NCBI GenBank assembly: GCA_000165425.1
Contig: CT868041.1
Span: forward strand, 620,001-651,731
DNA from: Paramecium tetraurelia
Lineage: Eukaryota
Reading direction: 5' to 3'
DNA length: 31,731 nt
Both the position numbers and the translations under genes were made by a program. The notes under the pieces were generated by a model. That model saw only the letters and a list, made by a program, of their open reading frames with translations. It did not search any database and was not told the origin of the DNA. Within the stretch, counting starts at the first letter, position 1; each line of letters opens with the position of its first letter. Below are positions 22-30,370 of this stretch, piece by piece.

Positions 22-1333
22 TCATATATATTGAACATCTATTGCCTTGCTTAATCTTTGGTAATCGCCTGTAAATGTGACTTCAAATTCTTAATTTTCT
101 GAAGTTCTTTTGTTATACATTTCAATTTCATGCACTTTTGATATAAATCTATATTAAATAATTCAAATTAAATACCCAAATTTCTTTGGTTTTATTAATC
201 TAAAATCATGTTAGAATGCTTTCCAATTATCTGTTAATACTTAGCCAAGCGTTCCAACTTTATTTTCATCTTCAGATATAAAATCTCTGTAAGCAAAGGC
301 AAAAATACTTGCAAGAGTCATGCAAAGCATTTCTACACAAACTAGAGTGTTCTTGTTAATTATTTTTGATTATTTACTTCTATGGCACTTATGATTGTAG
401 CACTGCTATATTTTGCTTCATCTGGTTCAAAACAGCTTGAAATTTCTTCTTCAAAAATTGATAGGGTTAACGATTACCAGAAGGTAAAAAATAACGTTAC
501 TTTTATAATCAAGAATTTGAGTAATGGTCTATAGAATTAATATAAATTTGTACTTGTATGGTTGTAAAGGATGCTTTAGTGCATAATAAAACAAAATTAG
601 GTAATAGAGTGAGAATGTTTCACTCGTTATGATGATAAATTCAAAGCTTGACATCAATCTTTACTTTAAATATGAAATATAAAAATACTGCGTATAACTT
701 ATGATGAAATGGGTGCAAAACTATGATTAAAATAGTGAGAACAGGTTTCACAACACAATACTAAAGAACAAATTTCTTGCATCTATAAGTGAAATACTTA
801 GCTTTAGCCTTCCTAATGAATTAAATTAATATTATACGTAGTTAATAGGTATCTTTCAGTACAGTAATTAACCGGCCACAAATGATGTATTTCTTTTTCA
901 TGTTCAATCATTGTTTGATAAACGCGATCATCGTATAATTGTTTATCCTCTGGATTATATGCCATATAAGAGAACATAAGGTAGAAAAATGTGAACAACA
1001 GAAAAGCCAAATAAATATCACGAACCAATTCGAAATAGGATGCTAAACCCTGTTTACTACTATATTTGAATTTATTCTTACATGAAATTCCATCGACATT
1101 ATTGAAATTAATCCATAAAAAGGTGCCATCATGAGTATAACTAATAGTATAAAGATTATTTTGGTACTTATGATTTTACTTTGAAAAAAGGGCATATTGA
1201 AATTCATTAGGTGTCTAATAATTAAATACAATGATATCATTAAAGAGATCACCACACATCCTATAGACAGCAATAACCCATCGGTCAGGAGGGTTTCTAT
1301 ACAATCTTCATCACATTTATAAGGGCAAATCAT
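22..1333 (-). CDS. TMEM184: TMEM184 / organic solute transporter OSTalpha-family membrane protein (multi-exon)
   Basis: Ciliate-code translation from ATG 1333 to TGA 24-22 (...DVQYI*). Family motifs: HLMNFNMPFFQSKIIIILMMAPFY, VRDIYLAFLLFTFF, PLLKFLIIKVTLFFTFWQ, ENTLVCVEML...AFAY. Several tiny GT-AG introns (e.g. 1141-1167). Confidence 0.92.
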
Positions 1334-3071: not shown

Positions 3072-3900
3072 TATAATTATATCAGTTAAATAATAAATTA
3101 TGATAATATCTAAAAATTATTAACTTACTAAATTATTGAATATTGTTCATGGTACCCAATTATACAGATTTGAGTATGATTTCTACATAATTATAAAAGA
3201 GAACATTAATAACTATATAAAAATATCTATTTATCAAGATTTTCACAACTAAAATTAAATTGAAAGAGAATATTGAAAAATGAACATAAGCAATTAATAA
3301 GAATTAGTTTGTAATAAATATAATTTTAAAATCATAATATGTTGCTCGAAATGTTTCATAAATAATTTAATTAAATTCTTTTGGAAAAATCAAATATAAA
3401 AATGAACTTATTCTAAATTGATTATATATGATAATACAAAGAATTCTATTCAATTTATTAAAATGTATTTTCGTAAAGAATCAATAATAATTTTTTTATA
3501 AAAAAGTTAAAGCTCAAATTATCAACACAGTATTTATGATAGTTTTATTTTTTTTAAAGTAATCAGAGGAGAATGTTATTAAGTGAGATTTTACACAGAT
3601 ATTGCTTTGTAAATTGATTACACAATTCTTTAAAAGAAATGAATCAATTATTTATAAATTAAAATGTAACAATAATTAGTCAATATAATAGATCGTTTAA
3701 GTTATAATATTCTTTTTAGCTATCATGGTATTTAATAAATTTGATTATTAAATAATAACTTTTGTAAAATTAAAACCTTGAGTAGATAATTAGAAATAAC
3801 AGGAGATGAAATTAACACTAATTATATTAAACAAAATCTTTAAATTGAGAACAATATACTTAAAGTAATAATAAATTATTTTGGTTTTTTAATAAAAATA

Positions 3901-4387
3901 ATGTCTTTGAATTCTTGTGAATAATAACTGGATTTAGATGATTCTTGTGAATCTCCTTTCTCATAATCACCTAAATCCAAAAGAATAAAGAAGTTTGAAT
4001 TGATTTCCCCTAAAAAAAATGTTGGCCATTGGACGAAGGAAGAACATGAAAAATATTTGTACTTCCTAGAGGATCATTCTGACATAAAGAAAAATAATAA
4101 AATATTCAAGTCAATGAGCGAGGTTATTGGAACTCGATCACCCAGTCAATGCAGGTATTATCTATATTTACATTAGATCACATCACTAAAAGTTTAACCC
4201 CTAATCGCCATTAGTTCAGAGAAAGACTTAAAAAGTGTAAAAACAAACTTAGTCAACTTTATAAGACGATTTAAACTTGTAAATGGATGAAGAATCTCTC
4301 AATAGAAATATGGTCCAACTTATGATCTATGATGAAGATGATTAAGTCTACTAAACTCCATAATTTAATTTAGATGATTTCTTTTGA
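3901..4387 (+). CDS. Single-repeat MYB/SANT transcription factor, SHAQKYF class
   Basis: GHWTKEEHEKYLYFLE...IFKSMSEVIGTRSPSQCR^SHHQKFNP across a 22-nt intron (4155-4176); TGA 4385-4387. Confidence 0.9.
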
Positions 4388-4934: not shown

Positions 4935-6454
4935 ATGGTGTTAACAGAACTTGGATAATCAATTAAAGGAGTTCTTAATAAATTAAATTAACCTTAACAA
5001 ATTAATGAAGTAGTTGTTGATTAAATTCTAAATGAAATATCTATTGCCTTATAGAAAACAGATGTAAATGAGAGTTTAATATAAGAGTTGAGAGAAAATA
5101 TTAGATTGGAGTTCAAATTACACTTATTAGAATTTATAAATCTCTAACGACTTCTTTAAAAATCAATAATTGAAGAATTGACAAAATTACTTTAAAATGA
5201 TATTATGTCATTTCAACCAAAGAAAGGTATATTATACTTTGAATTAAAGGATAACCTAATGTTATGATGCTTATAGGTTTAAAAGGATCTGGTAAAACGA
5301 GTACTTGCTTTAAATATGCGTACTACTTTTAAAAAAGAGGATGGAAGGTTGGGATTATTTGTGCTGGTTCATCTTAATTATAAGAGATAGATTGGGTAAA
5401 ACAGTAAGCTAAAAAGATTAAAGTTCTATTCTATGGGTAATTTCAAATAAAATATAAAGTTCTTATTTTGAATCAGATCCAGTTAACGCTACCTAGGATG
5501 GAGTTTAAATTTTCAAAAAGGAGGGAATTGATATAATACTTATAGACACGGTAGGAAAGTATGAAAAAGAAACTGATTTATGTAAAGAAATGAAATAAAT
5601 GGAGTACATGATATAACCAGATAATATTATTTTTGTGATGGATTCATCAATTGGATAAATTTGTTAAGATTAAGTATTTGTTTTCAAAAGTGCTTTTAAT
5701 TAAGGATCAATAATAATTACAAAAGTGGATCGTCATTCAAAAGGTGGAGGTGCGATTTCTGCTGTTGTAGCTACCAACACGCCTATTGACTTTATATGTA
5801 ATGGAGAAGGTCATGAAGATTTATTAGAATTTTAATCTTCATAGTTTATTAGCAAACTATTAGGATTTGAAGATCTTAAGGGGTTACTAAATAAATTAAA
5901 CAGCTTTGTTTCAATTGGACCTAAGGAAAAATAGTTTACATTAAGAGATTTGGAATCAGAAGTAAAAAAACTGTTAAAATTTGGATCAATTAATTATTTC
6001 TTTTCGAAATGCTTGATGGGAATTCCAAGTATTAATGTAAATGAAAAAGAGTAAACATAGTAGATGAAAAGATATCTTTATATTTTGAATTCAATGACAT
6101 CAAAAGAATTAGATGGACAAGGTATTTCATTATAGTAAGTGTTGTAGTAACTTTATCGAATTCTAGAATTATTCGAATAGCTAAAGGTTCAGGGACAACA
6201 ATTGAACAAGTCAATAATTTATTAAAAATCTATAAATCATTCATAAAAACCTCACACACTCCTCCTAAACACAATTTTAAAGAATTAAGTATAATTGAGT
6301 AGTGATTTTAGCGAACAAAGAATTTTCATCAAAATTATTAGAAGATATGTCGAAAGATCCAAACATACTTTAAAAATTGGGTGATTTCAAAAGTATATAA
6401 GACATGATGAAATAATTGGGAAATATATAAAATAATAACATATGTCGGAAGTGA
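4935..6454 (+). CDS. SRP54: Signal recognition particle 54 kDa protein, divergent paralog (N, G and M domains)
   Basis: MVLTELGQSI...; [70 protein letters not shown]. Introns 5227-5249, 5437-5459, 6122-6147, 6289-6311; TGA 6452-6454. Confidence 0.93.
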
Positions 6455-15594: not shown

Positions 15595-15800
15595 CTATTT
15601 TAAGAGTAATTCAAAATATTAATTGAAATAATTTCATAATTCTTTTCTTTTTAGAAATATTTAAACTACCCCAAGCTTCATTGTATTATTGGTTAAGTCA
15701 TTAAATGATAAATAAATTCTAAAGTTTTTGCTTGGCTTAATTTATACTTAAGTATTTGGGTGATAAAAATATTAATATAAATAAATAAATTAACATTAAA

Positions 15801-17744
15801 ATGAATCCATAAGATCAACTTGTAAAAATTACACTAATAAAAGTGCCAGATGGATATTAAGTTGAAGAGAAAATTTATACAAAAATAAAAATTCCAAAAA
15901 CATTTCTTGATCAATAAAAAATTACTCAACCAAAACCTACTTAAAAATAAGTTGTTTCTAAACCACCTTCATAAATCAAATAAGCAATGCCTCCACAAAT
16001 TCAACCTGTTAATCTTCCTCCACCTATGCCCCCTTAAAATAATTTAGTTCAATAATAGTTGGAAAATATTCCCTCTAAACTGATTTGGAATCCTTCCCCA
16101 GCACCTTAAAACCCTCATTAAATTAAGCAAATGCCACCCTAAAATCAATGGTTTGCTTAGCCTCAACTCCCTTAAATCCATTAACCTCCACCTCAAATAT
16201 AATAGCCACCTTAACCATAAATAACTCTGCCAATATAATAGCCATAAGAATCATAAAAACAAGAAATAAGAAGATAATTATCAAAACATTCACTGATAAT
16301 TCCTTCCTGTGCTAATTGGTTTTAGATGGATAGTATTAATGAAATTGAAAAGGATCACTTCTCTGAATTTTTTACAAATTAACATGTTTCAAAAACACCT
16401 GAACTTTATAAAAAATATAGAAACTTCATTGTTAATCTGTATAGAAACTAGCCAAGCACATATTTAACAACCATTGCGTGTAGAAAGGTCTTAGCAGGGG
16501 ATGCATGCACAATATCTAGAATTCATGGGTTTCTATAATATTGGGGTTTGATAAATTATTCTGTCGATCCAGACACATGTCCAAATAAAGTACTTCCTTA
16601 ATAAGCCTTGACAAAGAGTCTCTATAGAACCTTGTAATTAAATGCAAAAGATGAGCTTGATGAAAAAAGTGATTTAAATTAATATGAGATAACCTTGATT
16701 AATGCCATCAAAATATTTTCTAAAAGATATAGGTATTAAACAGTATTAACATTAGACCTGGTTGTTCTTTTTGCGGAATACTATGTGGATTATAATGGTA
16801 TGCCGAAAAAGAGTAGACACAAAAGGAGAAGGTAGATTAAGATAAAGTAGAGAATGTAAAAGAGGTTGAAAATAAATAGAAAAATTCAATCAAATTAGAT
16901 TTATGTATGAAGTGCTTTTCTAATAATAATTTTCCTAATAGTTTAACATCTGAGGATTTCTAATTAACTAATCTTGAGTAAAAGTTTTCATAATTACATA
17001 TCTTATCCGATTAACCTAGATCAATATTAAACGACTAAGAAGTAAGCTACCTAATTTCGATTATTCAAGAAACTTCTGATTCAAATTGGGAAAAATTAGC
17101 TTAGCAGTTGAATTAAACATTTTCGACTTCTCATACTGAGGAGGAATTAATTCTACACTTTCTTTAATATCCTATTGATCATTTAATAGAGATTGATAAA
17201 GTGATTGATTCAAAAGAATGCCTAGAGAAATTATCAATTAATGATGTATCTAGTAGAATTGCTTTTGAAGAAGTACATATTACTTTAACTTTAGCCCAAT
17301 GTTTTTAGTGACCAAAAAAACCTTGTTAGCTTTCATTTATCCATTTTCAAAAAGCTATTGAATAATTTAAATAAAAGAGATTCAGAATAATTTCTAAAAC
17401 TTGATGATGTGAAATCAAACAGTAACAATAATGAAGATGTTATTGAAGAAGAAAAAAGAGTAATATAAATGAGCTAAGAAACCTTAGAGAGGGCAAAATC
17501 TTTGTAGAAAAGGGAAGAAGAGAAATTGAATAATCATATTAATCTTTTAATAAGTTTATAGATGGAAAAACTAGAACATAAACTCACCTTTTTAGAAGAA
17601 TATGAAAAACTAATTCTATATGAAAAGCAATAATTAGAAATTTGTTAAGTAATTTAAAAATTATATTTTTAGAAATAAACTTTAGCAGAAAGATTGGTAA
17701 TAGTATAATAAAAACTATAATATTACTCGGATAATAATTAATGA
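15801..17744 (+). CDS. SWI3: SWI/SNF core subunit SWI3/SMARCC/Rsc8 (P/Q-rich N-terminus, SWIRM, ZZ-like zinc finger, SANT, coiled coil)
   Basis: IIPSCANWFQMDSINEIEK...YKKYRNFIVNLYR...[27 protein letters not shown] (SWIRM); CSFC...LCMKCF; C-terminal LQMEKLEHKLTFLEEYE. Introns 16733-16755, 17273-17294, 17649-17672; TGA 17742-17744. Confidence 0.93.
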
Positions 17745-22900: not shown

Positions 22901-25900
22901 CCCGAAAGGCCAATTCTTCTTCTCTCTGAATTATTTAAATATATTAAAGATCTGCCAGAATAAAATTTTTATTGAAATAATTATAAATTGCTTTTATTAA
23001 AGTAAATTGATTTTTGTATCTTTAAATCTAAGTGTGAAATTAAATTAGAATTAAAATATACTTTGAATTTTTCCTTAAGGTACTAATTAAATTTAATCTT
23101 TCAAATGAGCTTACAGATGACTAATTATCTTATGTTTATTTAAACTTTTATTTCAAAATTGTGCGATGCTCTACTTCAGATAGATTTTCTAATTTTATAT
23201 TAAAGCTTAATTATTTTAGAATAATTTTTAGTTGACTACAGCATTTTTTTATCGCAGCGATAATTTACGAGTTTTCAGGTTCTATTTATTGCTTCAAACC
23301 AAAAAGAGCAGATATTTTAAAATAAAATATTAATAATGTATCCAAAATCTTCTTAATATCATGGGGTTTTAGAATATATGTTTGTATCTCTCGGGAGATG
23401 TAATCTAAGAATTTTTCCATAAAGTTAATAGTTTGTACATTATGTTAAGCTGCCAAATAATCTTCTGCTTCCTGAATCAATTAAATTGATTTTTTAAATT
23501 ATTTCATTCTAAGGTGAAAATTGATTTAGTGCTTCATATTCTCGATATAGAATTAATAGGATTAGTCTTTTAAATTGAGATTAAACTAAAAATTAATATC
23601 TGAGAATGGATCTTATTTTTGCATATTTTCTAAGGCCTAACTTGCTGTTAAATCATTATATAATATATCCATCAAAAAGGACAATAAAGGGTGTTCAATG
23701 TTTTTAAGGACTTCCCCCAAATCTTCGATTGGGTCTAGCAATATCATCTCCAAAATAACTTGAACTAACTAGAATACCGGATTGTCCTCTTGTAAAATAG
23801 AATTTAAAATCATATATTCATTATTACTTAAAGCATACGTATAAATTGAAAGGCTGTTTACAATACCCTTTGATAATATAATTAAATTTGCATACAAAAA
23901 TTACATTAATTAATCTATTGTGTAATGAAGTGAATGCTTTTTTCTAAATTTTATTACTTAATATAAAGTTTTACAATCTAAACAAGGGTATAAGGATACA
24001 CAATAAGCTTTTATTAAAAAATCATCAATTTAATCAATTATATTGAGTAATTTGATGTAATTCTTGCTTTCGCTAACAAAGACTCCTAATCCATTGTTGT
24101 AATGCTTTAAAAACTGCAATTATTATCCATGCTTTATTTGGAAAAATTACATTAAATATTCTTAATCCTCAACTTCAACAATCCAGAGAAGATCATGAAG
24201 ATGCTTTTTCATTGTTATATTAGGAATTTAATTCATTTCATCTAAGCAATATTATAAAACAAACTCTTCTAGTTTTGTAGAATATTATTCAAATATATAT
24301 GTGTCTTTAGATTTATCGATTATATTTTTAAACACTTCTGATTTTAAAGAATTTAGATAATAATTTTTTTATTAAATTCTCCCGTTAACTGAAGGAAATA
24401 TATAACTAGTTTTTTACCTATATAAATATCAAATTTTTATACTCATATTCTAATTTATTAAATAATTCTATAAACAATTCTAATGTATATTAATTTAACT
24501 GCGTATATTAAACTAAATTGTTAAATTTTTTATGTATATCTGAACCATTTTGAGCTTCCTCTAACTTTTTAGTTGCTTCGTAGTATTCTAAAACAAATTA
24601 AATGGCTTATTTTCTTATACTTTGTTTCCGAAATCCTCTAAAAAATAAACCCTTGTATCTGAATATTGTTACTTTTCTACAATTTAGCCATGATTTTTTT
24701 TCAATAAATTTATTATATTTTAAAACTAGCTCATTATATTCTTTTCTTTCTTCCAATGTAAGTTAATTTCCAAATTATCTAAATTATTTGCTAAATTTTA
24801 AAGCTGCCTAGGCTTTATAGTATTTATTTTGATTCTCAAAACTTTACTTTAATATTTAAAATCTCTTATAATCTAGATTATGCAATGCTTTTTATTTTCT
24901 TCTAAAATAAGATTAACTTTAAACCAATCTATAATCATTCCATAGCATATTATAAGAGGATAATAATTGAAGCCGAAAAAAAAATCGCCATATAATTGTT
25001 CTGTCCCTGATTAACTATTTAGGTCCTGATTGACAAGATTATATTTAAAATGCCCAGTTTATTGAACGCTTTTTATAATAGTTATAAAAAAATTAATAGT
25101 CTAATTTATCTACTTATTACAATTTTTTTATTATTTCTGTAATCATAAGCTAAAACTTACTTTTCCCTAATTTTTAAATTTCTTTTGCTGAATTTTATAT
25201 CTATGTAGTACTCTCAAAAGGATCAATAATACTTTTCATTCTGTTATTCTACCTTGAACTAGATACTGTAAATATAGGACTAGATACAGAATTCAAAGGG
25301 CTAGAATTTGAGATTTTTGAAGAATTTGAGTTGATTGGGCTTTATGTTTGTTTAACATGATCTTCATTTTAAATTATTTCTGCCTTTGAGATGAGATAAT
25401 TGGTTTCCTGTTCTACTAATCTCTAAGAAATCAACTAAATTTTTTTTCTCTAATGATCTAAAATTTCATCATCAGAACTAATTGTTTCAAAATAATCTGC
25501 TCTTTGCATGCCATTAGATCCAAATACTTTATATAACGGGCATCTTTATAATAGTACTTTATTCTCTTATTCTCTTCGACTACTTCTATTTGTAAGAATT
25601 TTAATATTATTCTAATAAATGTATTAGCCTCTCTTTACTATATACTCAAGTATTAATGGAGGACTTAAAAATGTCGTGTTTGTAATATATTTGATAAAGA
25701 AATTATAAAATAATAAAGTAACAAATAGCTAAATAACATCATCCTAAAGATATTTGTAATAATAAACACATATTAAACTACAATTACTAAGTAAACTAAT
25801 AAAATTAATAAATTAATGTATTTCAAACCAAATTCCTAAGGAACTATCTCCTTTCGGCCAAGGCCTTTATATTTAATATAAAAGTTTAAATTTTACAATT

Positions 25901-28900
25901 TAAAACTATAAGATCATCCATATCCAAAATAAAGTAAAACTTAATGGAAATAAGCCGCCAAACATATTGATTAATGTTGATAGTAAAAAAAATTTCATAT
26001 ATTCATCGATAATACCATATTTTTCTTGGGTTTGCTAAAAAGGAGTTTTAGATTCTTAATTTTCAATAAATGTCAGCAAATTTTTGCTTGAATAACTCTT
26101 CTCTTTTATTTATTAAATTCTCCTTTTTACATTAATTATTGTTAATAATAACTTTAACATTTAGTGTATTAGAATTAAAAATACAGTGGTACCGAAAAAA
26201 TATTATGCTTATCCAATACAATTATTTTGAGAGCACTTTAGATTCAGTTCTCCATTTAAAAAACACAAGATCAGTAATGGAAATAATTAAGAAAAACATA
26301 TAAGAGCATATTTTTTTAGGCAATAGCTGTTTTCATAATGTTCAACAGTCTAAAAATTCTCAAAATCTGTCAAAACTATTGCAATAGATTCATAATAATA
26401 TTCTACAATTATTTAAATCACATAATTCAAAATTGCTGTCACTATTATTTCAAAATTCCTAAATTAAATACTTGTACTCGCAAAGATACTTTCAAGGTAT
26501 AAATTAAAGAAGTAAAGTCCTATCGTTATGCAAACATCAGATCCAAATATCAAGATAAGAACAAAAATCGAAATACTAATTCTCCAAAAAAATTGAAAGT
26601 GAATTATCCCTGTAAAATTTAATTGATCAGTTGAAATGGATCTAATTTATTCTCCTTTAAAAGAACTTCTAATTAAGTTATATTTATAATTATTATTTTA
26701 ACCATTTTAAATGTTAAAAGCAAATTGTGTTTAATTCCAATAGTCTGTTAGAAAGCAATTTAAATTGATAATTAAAATTGAAAATATAGATTAAGCCACT
26801 AAGGATATATCATTATGCTAAATGTTAGTTGAATACATAATCATATTAAAAATTACTCCTAGTGCTGCCATGATCGTAGAAAATTGAATATAATATGAAG
26901 AAAATTTAAAGTATAATCCTATTTTTTCACCAAAGTAAATGCAAATTTTGCTTATCGGCATAGACCAAGGATATAAATAATTTAAATTCCATTTGCCAGA
27001 TAAATCAAAAGGTTATTGCTCATACATATAGAATTCTGAATTGATTTCTTATTAATGGTTATTGCTAATTCCAAATAATTCATAATTATTGTGTAAACTA
27101 AAAACAGAGTTTATCAATTTCATATTGATAAATATATCTAATCGAATTGTTGTTGAAAGAACAAAATATGCTAACTTTAATCTTTCATTGGTTGGAAATA
27201 AAGTTATTTAATGATTTTCTTTTGATAAATACCTGGACCATTTTAATTACGATTTAGCAATATTTTTTATAGATTAAGAATGTTATCGAAGGGTGAACGG
27301 AATATAAAGTTCAAAAGGCTATTAATAATATCTATCCCATATTGTTTTTAATGTTTATCCTGTGCTGTTTGCCACTTTTAAAGCCTCTTAAAAAATTAAG
27401 TAATAATTAGAAGCTAATTATTATTATTTAAACAACTTTATTTTTTTTAGAATTGGAAGCTTTTGGGATAATTAAATTTTATTTTATTGGCCTTATAGCT
27501 CTCTAATTTTTTCAAAAAGAATCTAAATTTGCTCTTATTCTTCTTCCGTAAATTCAAAATATCCTTTAGGCTTTTATCCAGTTCTTAGCGCAAATAATTC
27601 TTCTGCACTCTTTTATTTATCTAAGATTAAAGCAATATCGCTTTCTATAAAATATTTTTTTCTTTAAATTTCAATCTGTTTATTAAGATGAACAAGGTAA
27701 ATGTAATATGCCGTCCATTCATCATCAGTTGGACCTTCTTGATCTCCATAAAAATTAATTTTTCCATATTCAAATAATTCATTATTTATGTTACTTTAAC
27801 CTACATCTCTAGCTAATCTCTTAAAATTTATTTGCATTATTTAATCAATAATTAATGGTCTTAAATATTATAAGTATGAAGAAATACTATATTCGTCTGG
27901 CTTCCATAATCTGCCATTTAATCGTAGGGGTCTTAATTATTTATCAACAGGCTCGAGGGAAAATAAATCGGAGAAACAAAAACACAGTTTTTTCGAAAGT
28001 TAACAATTTTCAGCAGCTATTTCTAACATTTATTCAGGCATATATAACAAGAGATATATTTTTGATCCATCTTCAGAAATAATTGATCTGACCATAAATC
28101 CTTTTCTGGAAAATTACACTATTAAAATATTCCTTACTAATGTTAAAAGATCAGATGTTTCATTCATAGTTTTATTCCATTAAGATTGGATCAATCTTAA
28201 ATATTCCCCCTAACTATATGCTTTCTATTATTATTATTGAATTTTTTGAAAATCTATTTAAATTTGTTGAGCAGTCATTTAAATATTCCATTTGTTTTAT
28301 GATGCTAATTCCAATAAATCTTGCCTAAATTAGTTAACAGCTTTTTTTATCTAAATTTCTCTTTAGCAAAGCCCAAAATCTTATGAATTGCGATTATTAT
28401 TGTTGTTTTCAATAAAACCACAAAATTAGTTACTTTAATCAAATATTTGTTGATTTGTTCCTAATAAATTCATTGCATTTCTTTAATCATTTGGAATAGT
28501 TTCCAACCCTCTTGTTCTTTGCTCAAATAAAGAATAGGTCTTACGATCAGACAATTAAATGAATGCAATTTCGATCGCTTTTAAAAATAATTTATCCTGA
28601 ATAGATTTTTACTCTAGAACTAAGGCTTGTACAATCTAATCAACAATTTCATACTGTTTTTATTATAGCTAAGGTTCTTCTGATATATAATCTGGGTTTG
28701 GTAAACTTTATATAATTGAGAATTACCTCACAACAACTTCGGGTTCATCAAATTAGCTCAAGCAATCATCAAAACTCGCAATGTTATTCTCAGAATGCAG
28801 TAATTCCTCTTCATTTTTTTCTATACCTAGTAAATATTTAAAGTAATCTTGAAAAATCTCAACAAAATCTTCAATTTTTTCTGCTTTTGATTACTTTCCA

Positions 28901-29001
28901 GTTTTATTTATTATTTCAGGTATAAGATTTGGAAAAAACTTTGTCGGAAGTTTGGTAATAAACCTTTAATACTAGTTGGAATGGCTTGATCGAAAATTCA
29001 T
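19948..29001 (-). CDS. Giant (~2,990-3,000 aa) anoctamin/TMEM16-family protein with a degenerate kinase-like lobe and a long helical/TPR-like C-terminal extension
   Basis: Exon 29001-24443 holds the anoctamin signatures PWSMPISKICIYFGEKIGLYF, LTDFEN...YENSY, DEYMK...FGGLFPL and QRPWP...LGIW. A 25-nt intron (24418-24442) leads to a stop-free exon down to 21150, then a 23-nt intron (21127-21149), a possible 24-nt intron (20029-20052) and TGA 19950-19948. Confidence 0.85.
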
Positions 29002-29196
29002 ACAAATTATTAATCAATTTTTAATTATTTATTTATAACTATAATATTAATTTATAAGAAGAAAGTAGAAAAGGATTAAATTAAGGTTGATAGAAATACT
29101 ATATTCTTTGAAATTAAATTTCGAAAATACTCCCATATTGAAGGGATGGGCATATATAAGTGAAGAAATCTGAGAAGTAAAATTCAACATTCAAAA

Positions 29197-30370
29197 GAAT
29201 CTAAATTTTTTGCACAAATGAAATGAAAATCAATAAAAATTGCCCAAGTCATTCGTTATATCTGTTTCTCATCCGCCCTCATATTGATAATCATTAAAAA
29301 ATTTTTCAAATAGAACACAATTTAATATCAAACTATAAGATTTTTGCCTAATCTTTAGACAGATTCCTTTAAATAATTTCATTGTTTATTTCACTATTAA
29401 TATAATCCGTTTATGCTTAAAAAATGAATATTCAAGGGGTTCAAAATTCCTTCTTCTTGGACTGCTAATTTCCAATTTATTTTTTTAGATAATTTTCAGG
29501 TCCTGTTTTCCCTTTTTTGGAAAAAATTTCCTTAAGGTGAATTTTAAAATGGAGGTTTGTGGAAAATTAAACTTTTTTTTTTGGGAAACCTTTTGAGGTT
29601 GTGGTGGAAAGAAAATTTTTAAAGGAATCCCCCAGGAAANNNNNNNNNNNNNNNNNNNNNNNNNNNNNNNNNNNNNNNNNNNNNNNNNNNNNNNNNNNNN
29701 NNNNNNNNNNNNNNNNNNNNNNNNNNNNNNNNNNNNNNNNNNNNNNNNNNNNNNNNNNNNNNNNNNNNNNNNNNNNNNNNNNNNNNNNNNNNNNNNNNNN
29801 NNNNNNNNNNNNNNNNNNNNNNNNNNNNNNNNNNNNNNNNNNNNNNNNNNNNNNNNNNNNNNNNNNNNNNNNNNNNNNNNNNNNNNNNNNNNNNNNNNNN
29901 NNNNNNNNNNNNNNNNNGCATGTCCCAGCTGGACTCCTTGTGTCTAGCGAATCTAAATTTTTTGCACAAATGAAATGAAAAATCAATAAAAATTGCCCAA
30001 GTCATTCGTTATATCTGTTTCTCTTTCTACCTCATATTGATAATCATTAAAAAACTTTTCAAATAGACACAATTTAATATCAACTAGTAGATTTTTGTCT
30101 AATCTTTAGACAGATTCCTTAAATAATTTCATGCTTATTCAACTATTATATTATCTGTTTATGCTTAAATAATGATATTCAATGTGTTCAAATTTCTTCT
30201 TCTTGACTTGCTAGTTCTAATTTTATTTTTTAGTTATTTTCATGTCTTGTTTTCCTTTTTTTGTATAGTTTCTTTAGGCTGATTTTAGATTGAGGTTTTG
30301 TGAATATTATACTTTTTTTTTGGAATCATTTGATGATTGTTGGAGAGTATATTTTAATGAATCTCATGAT
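29197..30370 (+). repeat. Apparent direct duplication either side of an N gap (29197-29639 vs ~29949-30370); probable assembly artifact
   Basis: Both copies begin gaatctaaattttttgcacaaatgaaatg. The left copy gains errors and homopolymer expansions progressively toward the gap (N at 29640-29917), as a decaying read end would. Confidence 0.85.

Follow-up and report, generated by a model that had tools for sequence, protein, structure and literature searches.

Is the third SRP54 gene of Paramecium tetraurelia still a working part of the signal recognition particle (SRP), has it been turned to some other use, or is it a duplicate on its way out? The gene in question, GSPATT00006553001 (protein CAK66054.1), occupies positions 4935-6454 of the plus strand in the 31,731-nucleotide stretch of contig CT868041.1 that was analyzed here (hereafter, the window). 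The translation of its largest exon is 100% identical to the database entry, which is labeled 'signal-recognition-particle GTPase'. The window is macronuclear DNA that requires the ciliate genetic code and contains tiny GTA...AG introns. An earlier reading of the nucleotide letters (the sequence-only reading) had described the gene as an intact SRP54 paralogue that has lost its catalytic motifs. Our analysis favors, with a probability of about 0.55, a retained, rapidly evolving and catalysis-impaired SRP54 paralogue that belongs to a clade of the P. aurelia complex and probably still binds 7SL RNA.

The gene was remodelled as five exons and four introns encoding 474 amino acids (aa) and ending in TGA, the stop codon of the ciliate code. 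All four introns are of the GTA...AG type, none has a length that is a multiple of three, and their removal restores the frame. The features are as follows:

4935-5226, plus strand: exon 1, start ATG and N domain (aa 1-97); Pfam SRP54_N (PF02881), E = 3.6e-8, residues 6-82
5227-5249, plus strand: intron 1, 23 nucleotides, GTA...AG; gives a stop at aa 111 if retained
5250-5436, plus strand: exon 2, G1 P-loop GLKGSGKTS (5276-5302) and the eroded G2/insertion-box (IBD) motif CAGSSQLQEIDWV (5360-5398); SRP54 GTPase, E = 9e-11
5437-5459, plus strand: intron 2, 23 nucleotides
5460-6121, plus strand: exon 3; SRP54 GTPase (PF00448), E = 4.8e-36, and SRP_SPB (PF02978), E = 9.3e-9
Within exon 3, plus strand, G domain: G3 DTVGKY (5545-5562), G4 (5719-5754) and G5 CNGEG (5797-5811)
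Within exon 3, plus strand, linker and M domain: LLGFEDL (5857-5877), remodelled finger-loop region (5983-6054) and SMTSKELDG (6091-6117)
6122-6147, plus strand: intron 3, 26 nucleotides; its splicing yields GQVTLSNS, compared with GEVTLSNS in the P. pentaurelia and P. primaurelia orthologues
6148-6288, plus strand: exon 4, SRP RNA-binding motif (6162-6215); SRP_SPB, E = 3.8e-8
6289-6311, plus strand: intron 4, 23 nucleotides; once it is removed, the C-terminal tail aligns with the orthologue tail to the end
6312-6454, plus strand: exon 5, C-terminal tail without the canonical Gly/Met-rich segment; TGA at 6452-6454

Translations of four of the five exons matched the Pfam families SRP54_N, SRP54 GTPase and SRP_SPB, with no match for exon 5, and the PF00448 matches of exons 2 and 3 together span profile positions 1-196. 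In phmmer comparisons with mammalian SRP54 structures, residues 1-417 were covered with an E-value of ~1e-98. In GSPATT00006553001 we see an intact paralogue of SRP54 that has all three domains (N, G and M); the four introns and the full open frame that the sequence-only reading had reported are borne out by the gene model, the Pfam domains and the stop-free frame. The deposited model of 436 aa uses a 14-nucleotide intron (6122-6135) and retains intron 4, which shortens the tail. It appears to be mis-spliced at these two places, an intron of 14 nucleotides being implausible, while the 474-aa model agrees with the 465-aa orthologues of P. pentaurelia and P. primaurelia at both disputed splice places and on to the C-terminus. 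A further candidate intron of 31 nucleotides (5674-5704) was rejected, since the frame needs no splice there and the read-through aligns with canonical SRP54.

Which of the catalytic elements have been changed? All of the G1-G5 replacements noticed earlier are present in the positions given for them:

5276-5302, plus strand: G1, GLKGSGKTS (aa 107-115), canonical GLQGSGKTT
5360-5398, plus strand: G2, CAGSSQLQEIDWV, canonical CADTFRAGAFDQL
From 5545, plus strand: G3, DTVGK, canonical DTSGR
From 5719, plus strand: G4, TKVDR, canonical TKLDG
From 5797, plus strand: G5, CNGE, compared with GEGE in canonical Paramecium copies and GTGE elsewhere

In human numbering (a mammalian G-domain residue equals the GSPATT00006553001 residue plus one), the G2/IBD replacements are D138G, T139S, R141Q and Q147W, so that the loop reads AGSSQLQEIDW against the DTxRxxxxxQ pattern, and those of G3-G5 are S192V and R194K, L250V and G252R, and G274C. 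These G2 residues are the catalytic ones in GTPases of the Ffh/FtsY type. The DTxRxxxxxQ pattern of G2, DTxGR of G3 (R to K) and GxGE of G5 are all absent, whereas the P-loop pattern GxxGxGK[ST] is present, and nucleotide-binding residues persist in G1 (GLKGSGKT), G3 (DxxG), G4 (TKxD) and the KGGGA loop. The proposed loss of the catalytic motifs is consequently only partial: it holds for G2, for the arginine of G3, for the glycine that follows TKxD and for the first of the G5 glycines, but not for G1, DxxG and TKxD, which keep their nucleotide-binding residues. The M domain agrees with its earlier description, as the motifs SMTSKEL and RIxRIAKGSG are present and the finger loop is altered. Methionine makes up 6 of the 178 residues of the M region (3.4%) compared with 19 of 211 (9.0%) in a canonical tetraurelia copy; a methionine-rich M domain with a full finger loop is not found, there being indels in the GM-linker/finger-loop region and no Gly/Met-rich tail.

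The significance of the missing G2 arginine can be judged from its conservation elsewhere. The arginine column was 100% conserved in 85 non-redundant canonical SRP54s, a set obtained from 194 fetched proteins of 440-560 aa by greedy reduction at 85% identity, with the sole remaining Paramecium canonical sequence set aside. Among 373 fetched family members possessing a P-loop, DxxR was missing in only seven, four of which are the divergent Paramecium proteins described below. Judged by these counts, the loss of the G2 arginine is beyond chance fluctuation. The other three proteins without DxxR (P0386, P0455 and P0462, from other organisms) show clean deletions of the loop, suggesting skipped exons or model errors.

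Could the eroded motifs themselves be an artifact, that is, the product of a wrong frame, a retained intron or internal eliminated sequence (IES), or an assembly error? The two errors of the deposited model speak for such a view. However, long exons enclose the eroded motifs, the frame runs through them without interruption, and their length is the same as in the orthologues. Nothing like the canonical loop is seen in the other two frames over 5360-5400, and changes of this type recur in independent assemblies of three other species, all of which makes an artifact very improbable. A local frameshift as the source of the scrambled G2 loop was rejected because of the same two frames and the unchanged length.

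The three other species are P. pentaurelia and P. primaurelia, each with a 465-aa orthologue (67% identity to the tetraurelia protein for the former), and P. sonneborni, in which a 231-aa model on a 66.8-kb contig represents a truncated member of the same clade. The question of ortholog retention raised by the sequence-only reading thus has a mixed answer: the copy is retained in pentaurelia and primaurelia and truncated in sonneborni, and none was found in the octaurelia proteome. The G2 arginine is absent in 4/4 members of the clade, the loops being ADTYSKMCLDQ in pentaurelia, ANTYSKMCLDQ in primaurelia, ADTLS---LDQ in sonneborni and AGSSQLQEIDW in tetraurelia. Common to the three full-length copies are the replacement of the G5 glycine by cysteine and of the LLGxGD glycine by glutamate, a gap of 8 aa ahead of the M domain, remodelling of the finger loop, a methionine content of the M region of 3.4-3.6% compared with ~9% in canonical copies, and the loss of the Gly/Met-rich tail; a 6-aa deletion in the finger loop is present in the pentaurelia and primaurelia copies. 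Changes private to the tetraurelia lineage are, in its own numbering, D137G, T138S, Q146W, R193K, H194Y and G251R; in pentaurelia and primaurelia, DTPGRH and TKLDGH survive. The P. sonneborni model has a 3-aa deletion in G2 and a non-homologous 15-aa tail past the G3 region; this short copy could be a pseudogene, be interrupted by an IES or derive from a macronuclear (MAC)-variable region.

Since the G2 arginine is missing in all known members of the clade, the catalytic defect is old, predating the aurelia radiation, and was followed by long retention. A recent pseudogene is less in line with this combination than a protein of the pseudo-GTPase kind that has been maintained. In the alignment, the losses fall into two sets: the arginine of G2 (DTFRAGA), the first glycine of G5, the LLGxGD glycine, most of the M-domain methionines and parts of the GM-linker/finger loop disappeared early in the clade, and the equivalents of human D138, T139, Q147, R194 and G252 later, in tetraurelia.

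These data raise the question of where the clade comes from and whether the cell depends on it. The sequence-only reading had suggested looking for a canonical SRP54 elsewhere in the genome, and the search returned two ohnologues, GSPATT00038381001 and GSPATT00011321001, each of 507 aa with all canonical motifs present. Because of them, GSPATT00006553001 is not the sole SRP54 of the cell. The canonical pair falls within a cluster of at least 90% identity that comprises nine sequences from tetraurelia, octaurelia, primaurelia, pentaurelia and sonneborni. In these canonical aurelia proteins, G5 reads GEGE (GTGE in most eukaryotes), and they are near-identical over the five species, with tree paths of ~0.02.

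In a maximum-likelihood tree of 41 rows, hand-picked from 210 proteins as named taxa plus the best unnamed matches, the divergent copies of tetraurelia, pentaurelia and primaurelia formed a clade (100/100) sister to the canonical aurelia SRP54s (97/96); the two groups were joined with support of 100/95, leaving Tetrahymena and ciliate-like sequences outside. A tree of 23 rows built on the first 225-235 residues placed the P. sonneborni model in the divergent clade (100/100). Deviant composition or long branches were flagged in both trees, although long-branch attraction would draw the divergent clade away from canonical Paramecium, which is opposite to the placement seen. The Paramecium-specific signature GWKV is common to the divergent and canonical copies, in agreement with this placement.

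P. sonneborni is assigned to subclade B and the other species examined to subclade A in the accessible text of PMC8354472. As the divergent clade includes members of both subclades, the duplication predates the aurelia radiation, and the trees show it to have occurred on the Paramecium side, once the Tetrahymena lineage had branched off. The intermediate whole-genome duplication (WGD), which the accessible part of PMC11334263 describes as shared only within the aurelia complex, is the likely source of the divergent copy, given this tree-based timing. Each species has one divergent and two canonical copies; the single divergent copy implies that its twin from the recent WGD was lost everywhere. 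A HMMER search with a profile of the clade over 1.84 billion representatives revealed a gap between CAK66054.1 (864 bits) and ordinary SRP54s (at most 428 bits) that was occupied solely by the 231-aa P. sonneborni model, and on present data the clade thus seems confined to the aurelia complex. Metagenome scans gave 44 pattern matches but no relatives when the deposited protein was used; with the clade alignment they gave three loci of 32-33% identity, which have no relation to the clade and were set aside.

Another question is whether the divergent copy is kept by selection or persists by inertia. Selection was gauged by protein-level and single-sequence proxies only. The spliced frame contains no internal TGA, whereas 12 and 16 occur in the two alternative frames; of 5000 shuffles, none was stop-free. 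There are 106 single-step paths to TGA, so that more than ~0.085 neutral substitutions per site would probably break the frame (p < 0.05). For comparison, a median synonymous divergence (dS) of 1.7 is given for tetraurelia-sexaurelia orthologues in the accessible part of PMC4199370. On this scale, the 67% identity between the tetraurelia and pentaurelia proteins suggests evolution far from neutral. By rough arithmetic, such identity would correspond to ~0.17 replacements per non-synonymous site and to a ratio of non-synonymous to synonymous substitution rates (omega) of ~0.1-0.35 for dS from 1.7 to 0.5. The mean omega of aurelia ohnologues is reported as 0.05 in the accessible text of PMC10195154; our estimate for the divergent copy would be several-fold higher than this mean and well under 1.

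The distribution of the replacements leads to a similar view. In 458 usable alignment columns, polarized by canonical Paramecium SRP54, 194 were unchanged, 118 carried shared derived states, 45 changes were private to tetraurelia, 30 to pentaurelia, and 71 columns differed in all sequences. Private changes of tetraurelia hit 10 of 78 sites in the bin of at least 95% conservation and 18 of 66 in the bins below 60% (Fisher p = 0.035); in pentaurelia the corresponding values were 7 of 75 and 15 of 63 (p = 0.034). Their mean BLOSUM62 scores, 0.36 in tetraurelia (n = 45, p = 0.004) and 0.80 in pentaurelia (n = 30, p = 0.0004), exceeded the baseline of -0.29 expected from random single-nucleotide replacements on this coding sequence, that is, the observed replacements were more conservative. 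Moreover, the C-terminal tail past intron 4 is conserved with the orthologues. Neither a frame-disrupting stop nor a frameshift was found, and by the protein-level proxies the substitution pattern is non-neutral, which differs from what a pseudogene would show. These proxies point to purifying selection on the divergent copy that is weak but real, and much weaker than on the canonical copies.

The conservation is mosaic. In windows of 21 aa, comparison of the tetraurelia and pentaurelia divergent copies gave the following values:

Residues 381-403: SRP RNA-binding motif, 95% identity, the best conserved
Residues 1-21: N-terminus, 90% identity
Residues 111-131: P-loop and following helix, 90% identity
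Residues about 334-361: finger loop, 14-29% identity
Residues 131-151: G2 loop, 29% identity

Such a pattern suggests that the parts responsible for signal capture and GTPase activation are free-running, and that constraint bears on RNA binding and the nucleotide pocket.

The same data have to be set against a different explanation, that of a redundant duplicate decaying slowly under relaxed selection since the duplication, in which case the tetraurelia gene would be dead or dying with its first stop or frameshift yet to come. The conserved blocks would then be leftovers, or would reflect selection against toxic misfolded products. A number of observations weigh against a maintained function and on the side of decay. 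The tetraurelia-pentaurelia path amounts to 0.57 substitutions per site for the divergent copies and ~0.02 for the canonical ones, roughly 25-30 times faster, and the stem of the divergent clade is 0.96 compared with 0.15 for the canonical one. Only 75% of the sites that are at least 95% conserved in canonical proteins are identical between the tetraurelia and pentaurelia divergent copies, and the G domain is the least conserved within the clade (0.64, compared with 0.75 for N and 0.71 for M). Private changes are more numerous in tetraurelia (45) than in pentaurelia (30), though not significantly (p = 0.105), and several of them fall in G2, G3 and G4, where D137G, T138S, Q146W, R193K, H194Y and G251R amount to a progressive erosion of catalytic and signal-binding features. 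The G251R replacement adjoining TKxD and C273 in tetraurelia may also impair GTP binding. A caveat on the 41-row tree is the deviant amino-acid composition of its divergent rows.

Signs of dispensability belong to the same side of the balance. No P. octaurelia clade member of any length was found in the annotated proteome (the genome itself was outside the search), though its canonical SRP54 is present there, and P. octaurelia is the partner lineage of tetraurelia in the accessible part of a published phylogeny. In P. sonneborni the model ends at 231 aa, breaking off past the G3 region; since the initial P. sonneborni assemblies are reported, in the accessible part of the source, to include MAC-variable regions, assembly or an IES may account for this truncation. 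The recent-WGD twin of the divergent copy was lost in every species, and post-WGD gene loss is reported as ongoing in the aurelia complex (PMC10195154, accessible text). A neutral phase of up to ~0.085 substitutions per site is, moreover, compatible with the intact frame.

On the other hand, frames are intact in three species from two lineages whose separation goes far back in the aurelia radiation, with interspecific dS up to a median of 1.7, and the absence of in-frame TGA, the depletion of changes at canonical-invariant sites, the conservative replacements in both lineages, the 95% conservation of the RNA-binding motif and the conserved tail are not what decay would lead one to expect; nor do the tetraurelia and pentaurelia branch rates differ significantly. 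The sequence-only reading had itself named relaxed selection after duplication as an alternative, and this is clearly part of the story. We consider retention, perhaps in a new role, the better-supported answer, and slow decay of a third copy a possible but less probable one.

The conserved nucleotide pocket also allows an answer of the opposite kind, namely that the divergent protein is a still-active, subfunctionalized SRP54 GTPase, specialized for a stage or a client, in which substitute residues or the residues of the SRP receptor subunit SR-alpha alone sustain hydrolysis. The invariance or near-invariance of the P-loop, DxxG, TKxD and KGGGA in the clade, the retention of the RNA-binding motif, and the DTPGRH, TKLDGH and G2 DQ residues of the pentaurelia and primaurelia copies, which have a lysine one position past the lost arginine, are in line with this suggestion. 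Nevertheless, an arginine found in all 85 canonical sequences is lost in 4/4 clade members and no substitute basic residue is shared by them, sonneborni having its 3-aa deletion at this place and tetraurelia no basic residue; in tetraurelia the D138 and Q147 equivalents are gone as well; and the G domain is the least conserved domain of the clade. Removal of the homologous arginine finger of SR-alpha impairs activation, and activity of the divergent protein as an ordinary GTPase is in sum unlikely.

For the reading that we prefer, a retained but catalysis-impaired paralogue, the following mechanism can be proposed. The SRP54 fold would be kept, as homology by itself leads one to expect, with a helix-turn-helix of the M domain that should be able to bind helix 8 of 7SL RNA. 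A pocket for guanine nucleotide would persist too, at least in the proteins of pentaurelia and primaurelia. Such a protein would be unable to take part in reciprocal GTPase activation with SR-alpha, and its methionine-poor groove would be a poor binder of classical hydrophobic signal peptides. Rather than a standard co-translational targeting GTPase, it would be a non-canonical SRP54, which might compete for SRP RNA or hold a place on it, assist in assembly or regulation, or act as an adaptor for another class of clients. The further erosion in tetraurelia (the equivalents of D138, Q147, R194 and G252) suggests that the NG domain may now be a structural module only. A stronger form of this proposal, that a catalytically dead SRP54 has been kept since before the aurelia radiation, loading on 7SL RNA with neither classical signal-peptide binding nor the SRP-SR switch, and that it represents the first natural pseudoGTPase of the SRP54 family within an alternative or regulatory SRP, is put forward tentatively.

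How does this protein compare with known systems? With canonical SRP54 (the Paramecium pair and the mammalian structures 4ue5, 5l3q and 7obr) it shares the N-G-M architecture and Pfam families; it keeps the P-loop, DxxG, TKxD, KGGGA, SMTxxEL and RIxRIAKGSG and branches within eukaryotic SRP54. It differs from them in the replaced G2 loop (equivalents of human D138, R141 and Q147 changed to G, Q and W), in R194K, G252R, G274C and the glycine-to-glutamate change of LLGxGD, in the 8-aa deletion and, for the pentaurelia and primaurelia copies, the 6-aa one around the GM-linker/finger loop, and in the missing Gly/Met-rich tail. R458 of SR-alpha is presumably the G2-loop counterpart of SRP54 R141. 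In the R458A mutant, from which this active-site arginine finger has been removed, reciprocal activation is impaired while the SRP-SR complex still forms, according to the accessible part of PMC13588191. The divergent SRP54 resembles this mutant in the loss of an active-site arginine; R458A, however, is a point mutation made in the receptor in the laboratory, and here the loss arose naturally in a paralogue of SRP54 that has changed at many other sites as well. The protein would also resemble pseudoGTPases, in which a GTPase fold under some selection lacks its catalytic residues.

Duplicated SRP-type GTPases have been recruited to non-standard tasks in other cases, such as cpSRP54 and FlhF, both of which keep the catalytic motifs and GTPase activity, and cpSRP54 works without RNA in land plants. 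The Paramecium copy, by contrast, keeps the RNA-binding motif and has lost catalytic residues. No publication on GSPATT00006553001 or on any SRP54-family pseudoGTPase was found in the open-access library that was searched, the supplementary tables of the Paramecium genome papers being outside the search, and none on Paramecium SRP54 was found in the same literature, covered mostly as titles and abstracts.

The GTPase switch of SRP54 is among the most conserved mechanisms in biology, with its G2 arginine invariant in 85/85 canonical sequences. If function has been retained, the divergent copy would be a natural separation-of-function variant exposing roles of SRP54 beyond GTP-driven targeting (SRP RNA occupancy, assembly, regulation) and an example of Paramecium whole-genome duplicates drifting into pseudo-enzymes. 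If it is a slowly dying duplicate, it would be no more than an expected product of the three genome duplications in Paramecium, a genus in which divergent duplicates of WGD origin are commonplace.

Rfam searches at gathering thresholds gave no match within the window, and 11 of its other long frames had no Pfam match at E of 0.001 or below. The remaining features are as follows:

654-1307, minus strand: Ostalpha-type solute transporter domain, E = 2.4e-8
3745-4290, plus strand: Myb-like DNA-binding domain, E = 1.4e-5
15627-16910, plus strand: SWIRM domain, E = 6.9e-25
24289-29013, minus strand: long open frame of 1574 codons with an Anoctamin (calcium-activated chloride channel) domain, Pfam E = 1e-64
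29640-29917: 278 N, an assembly gap

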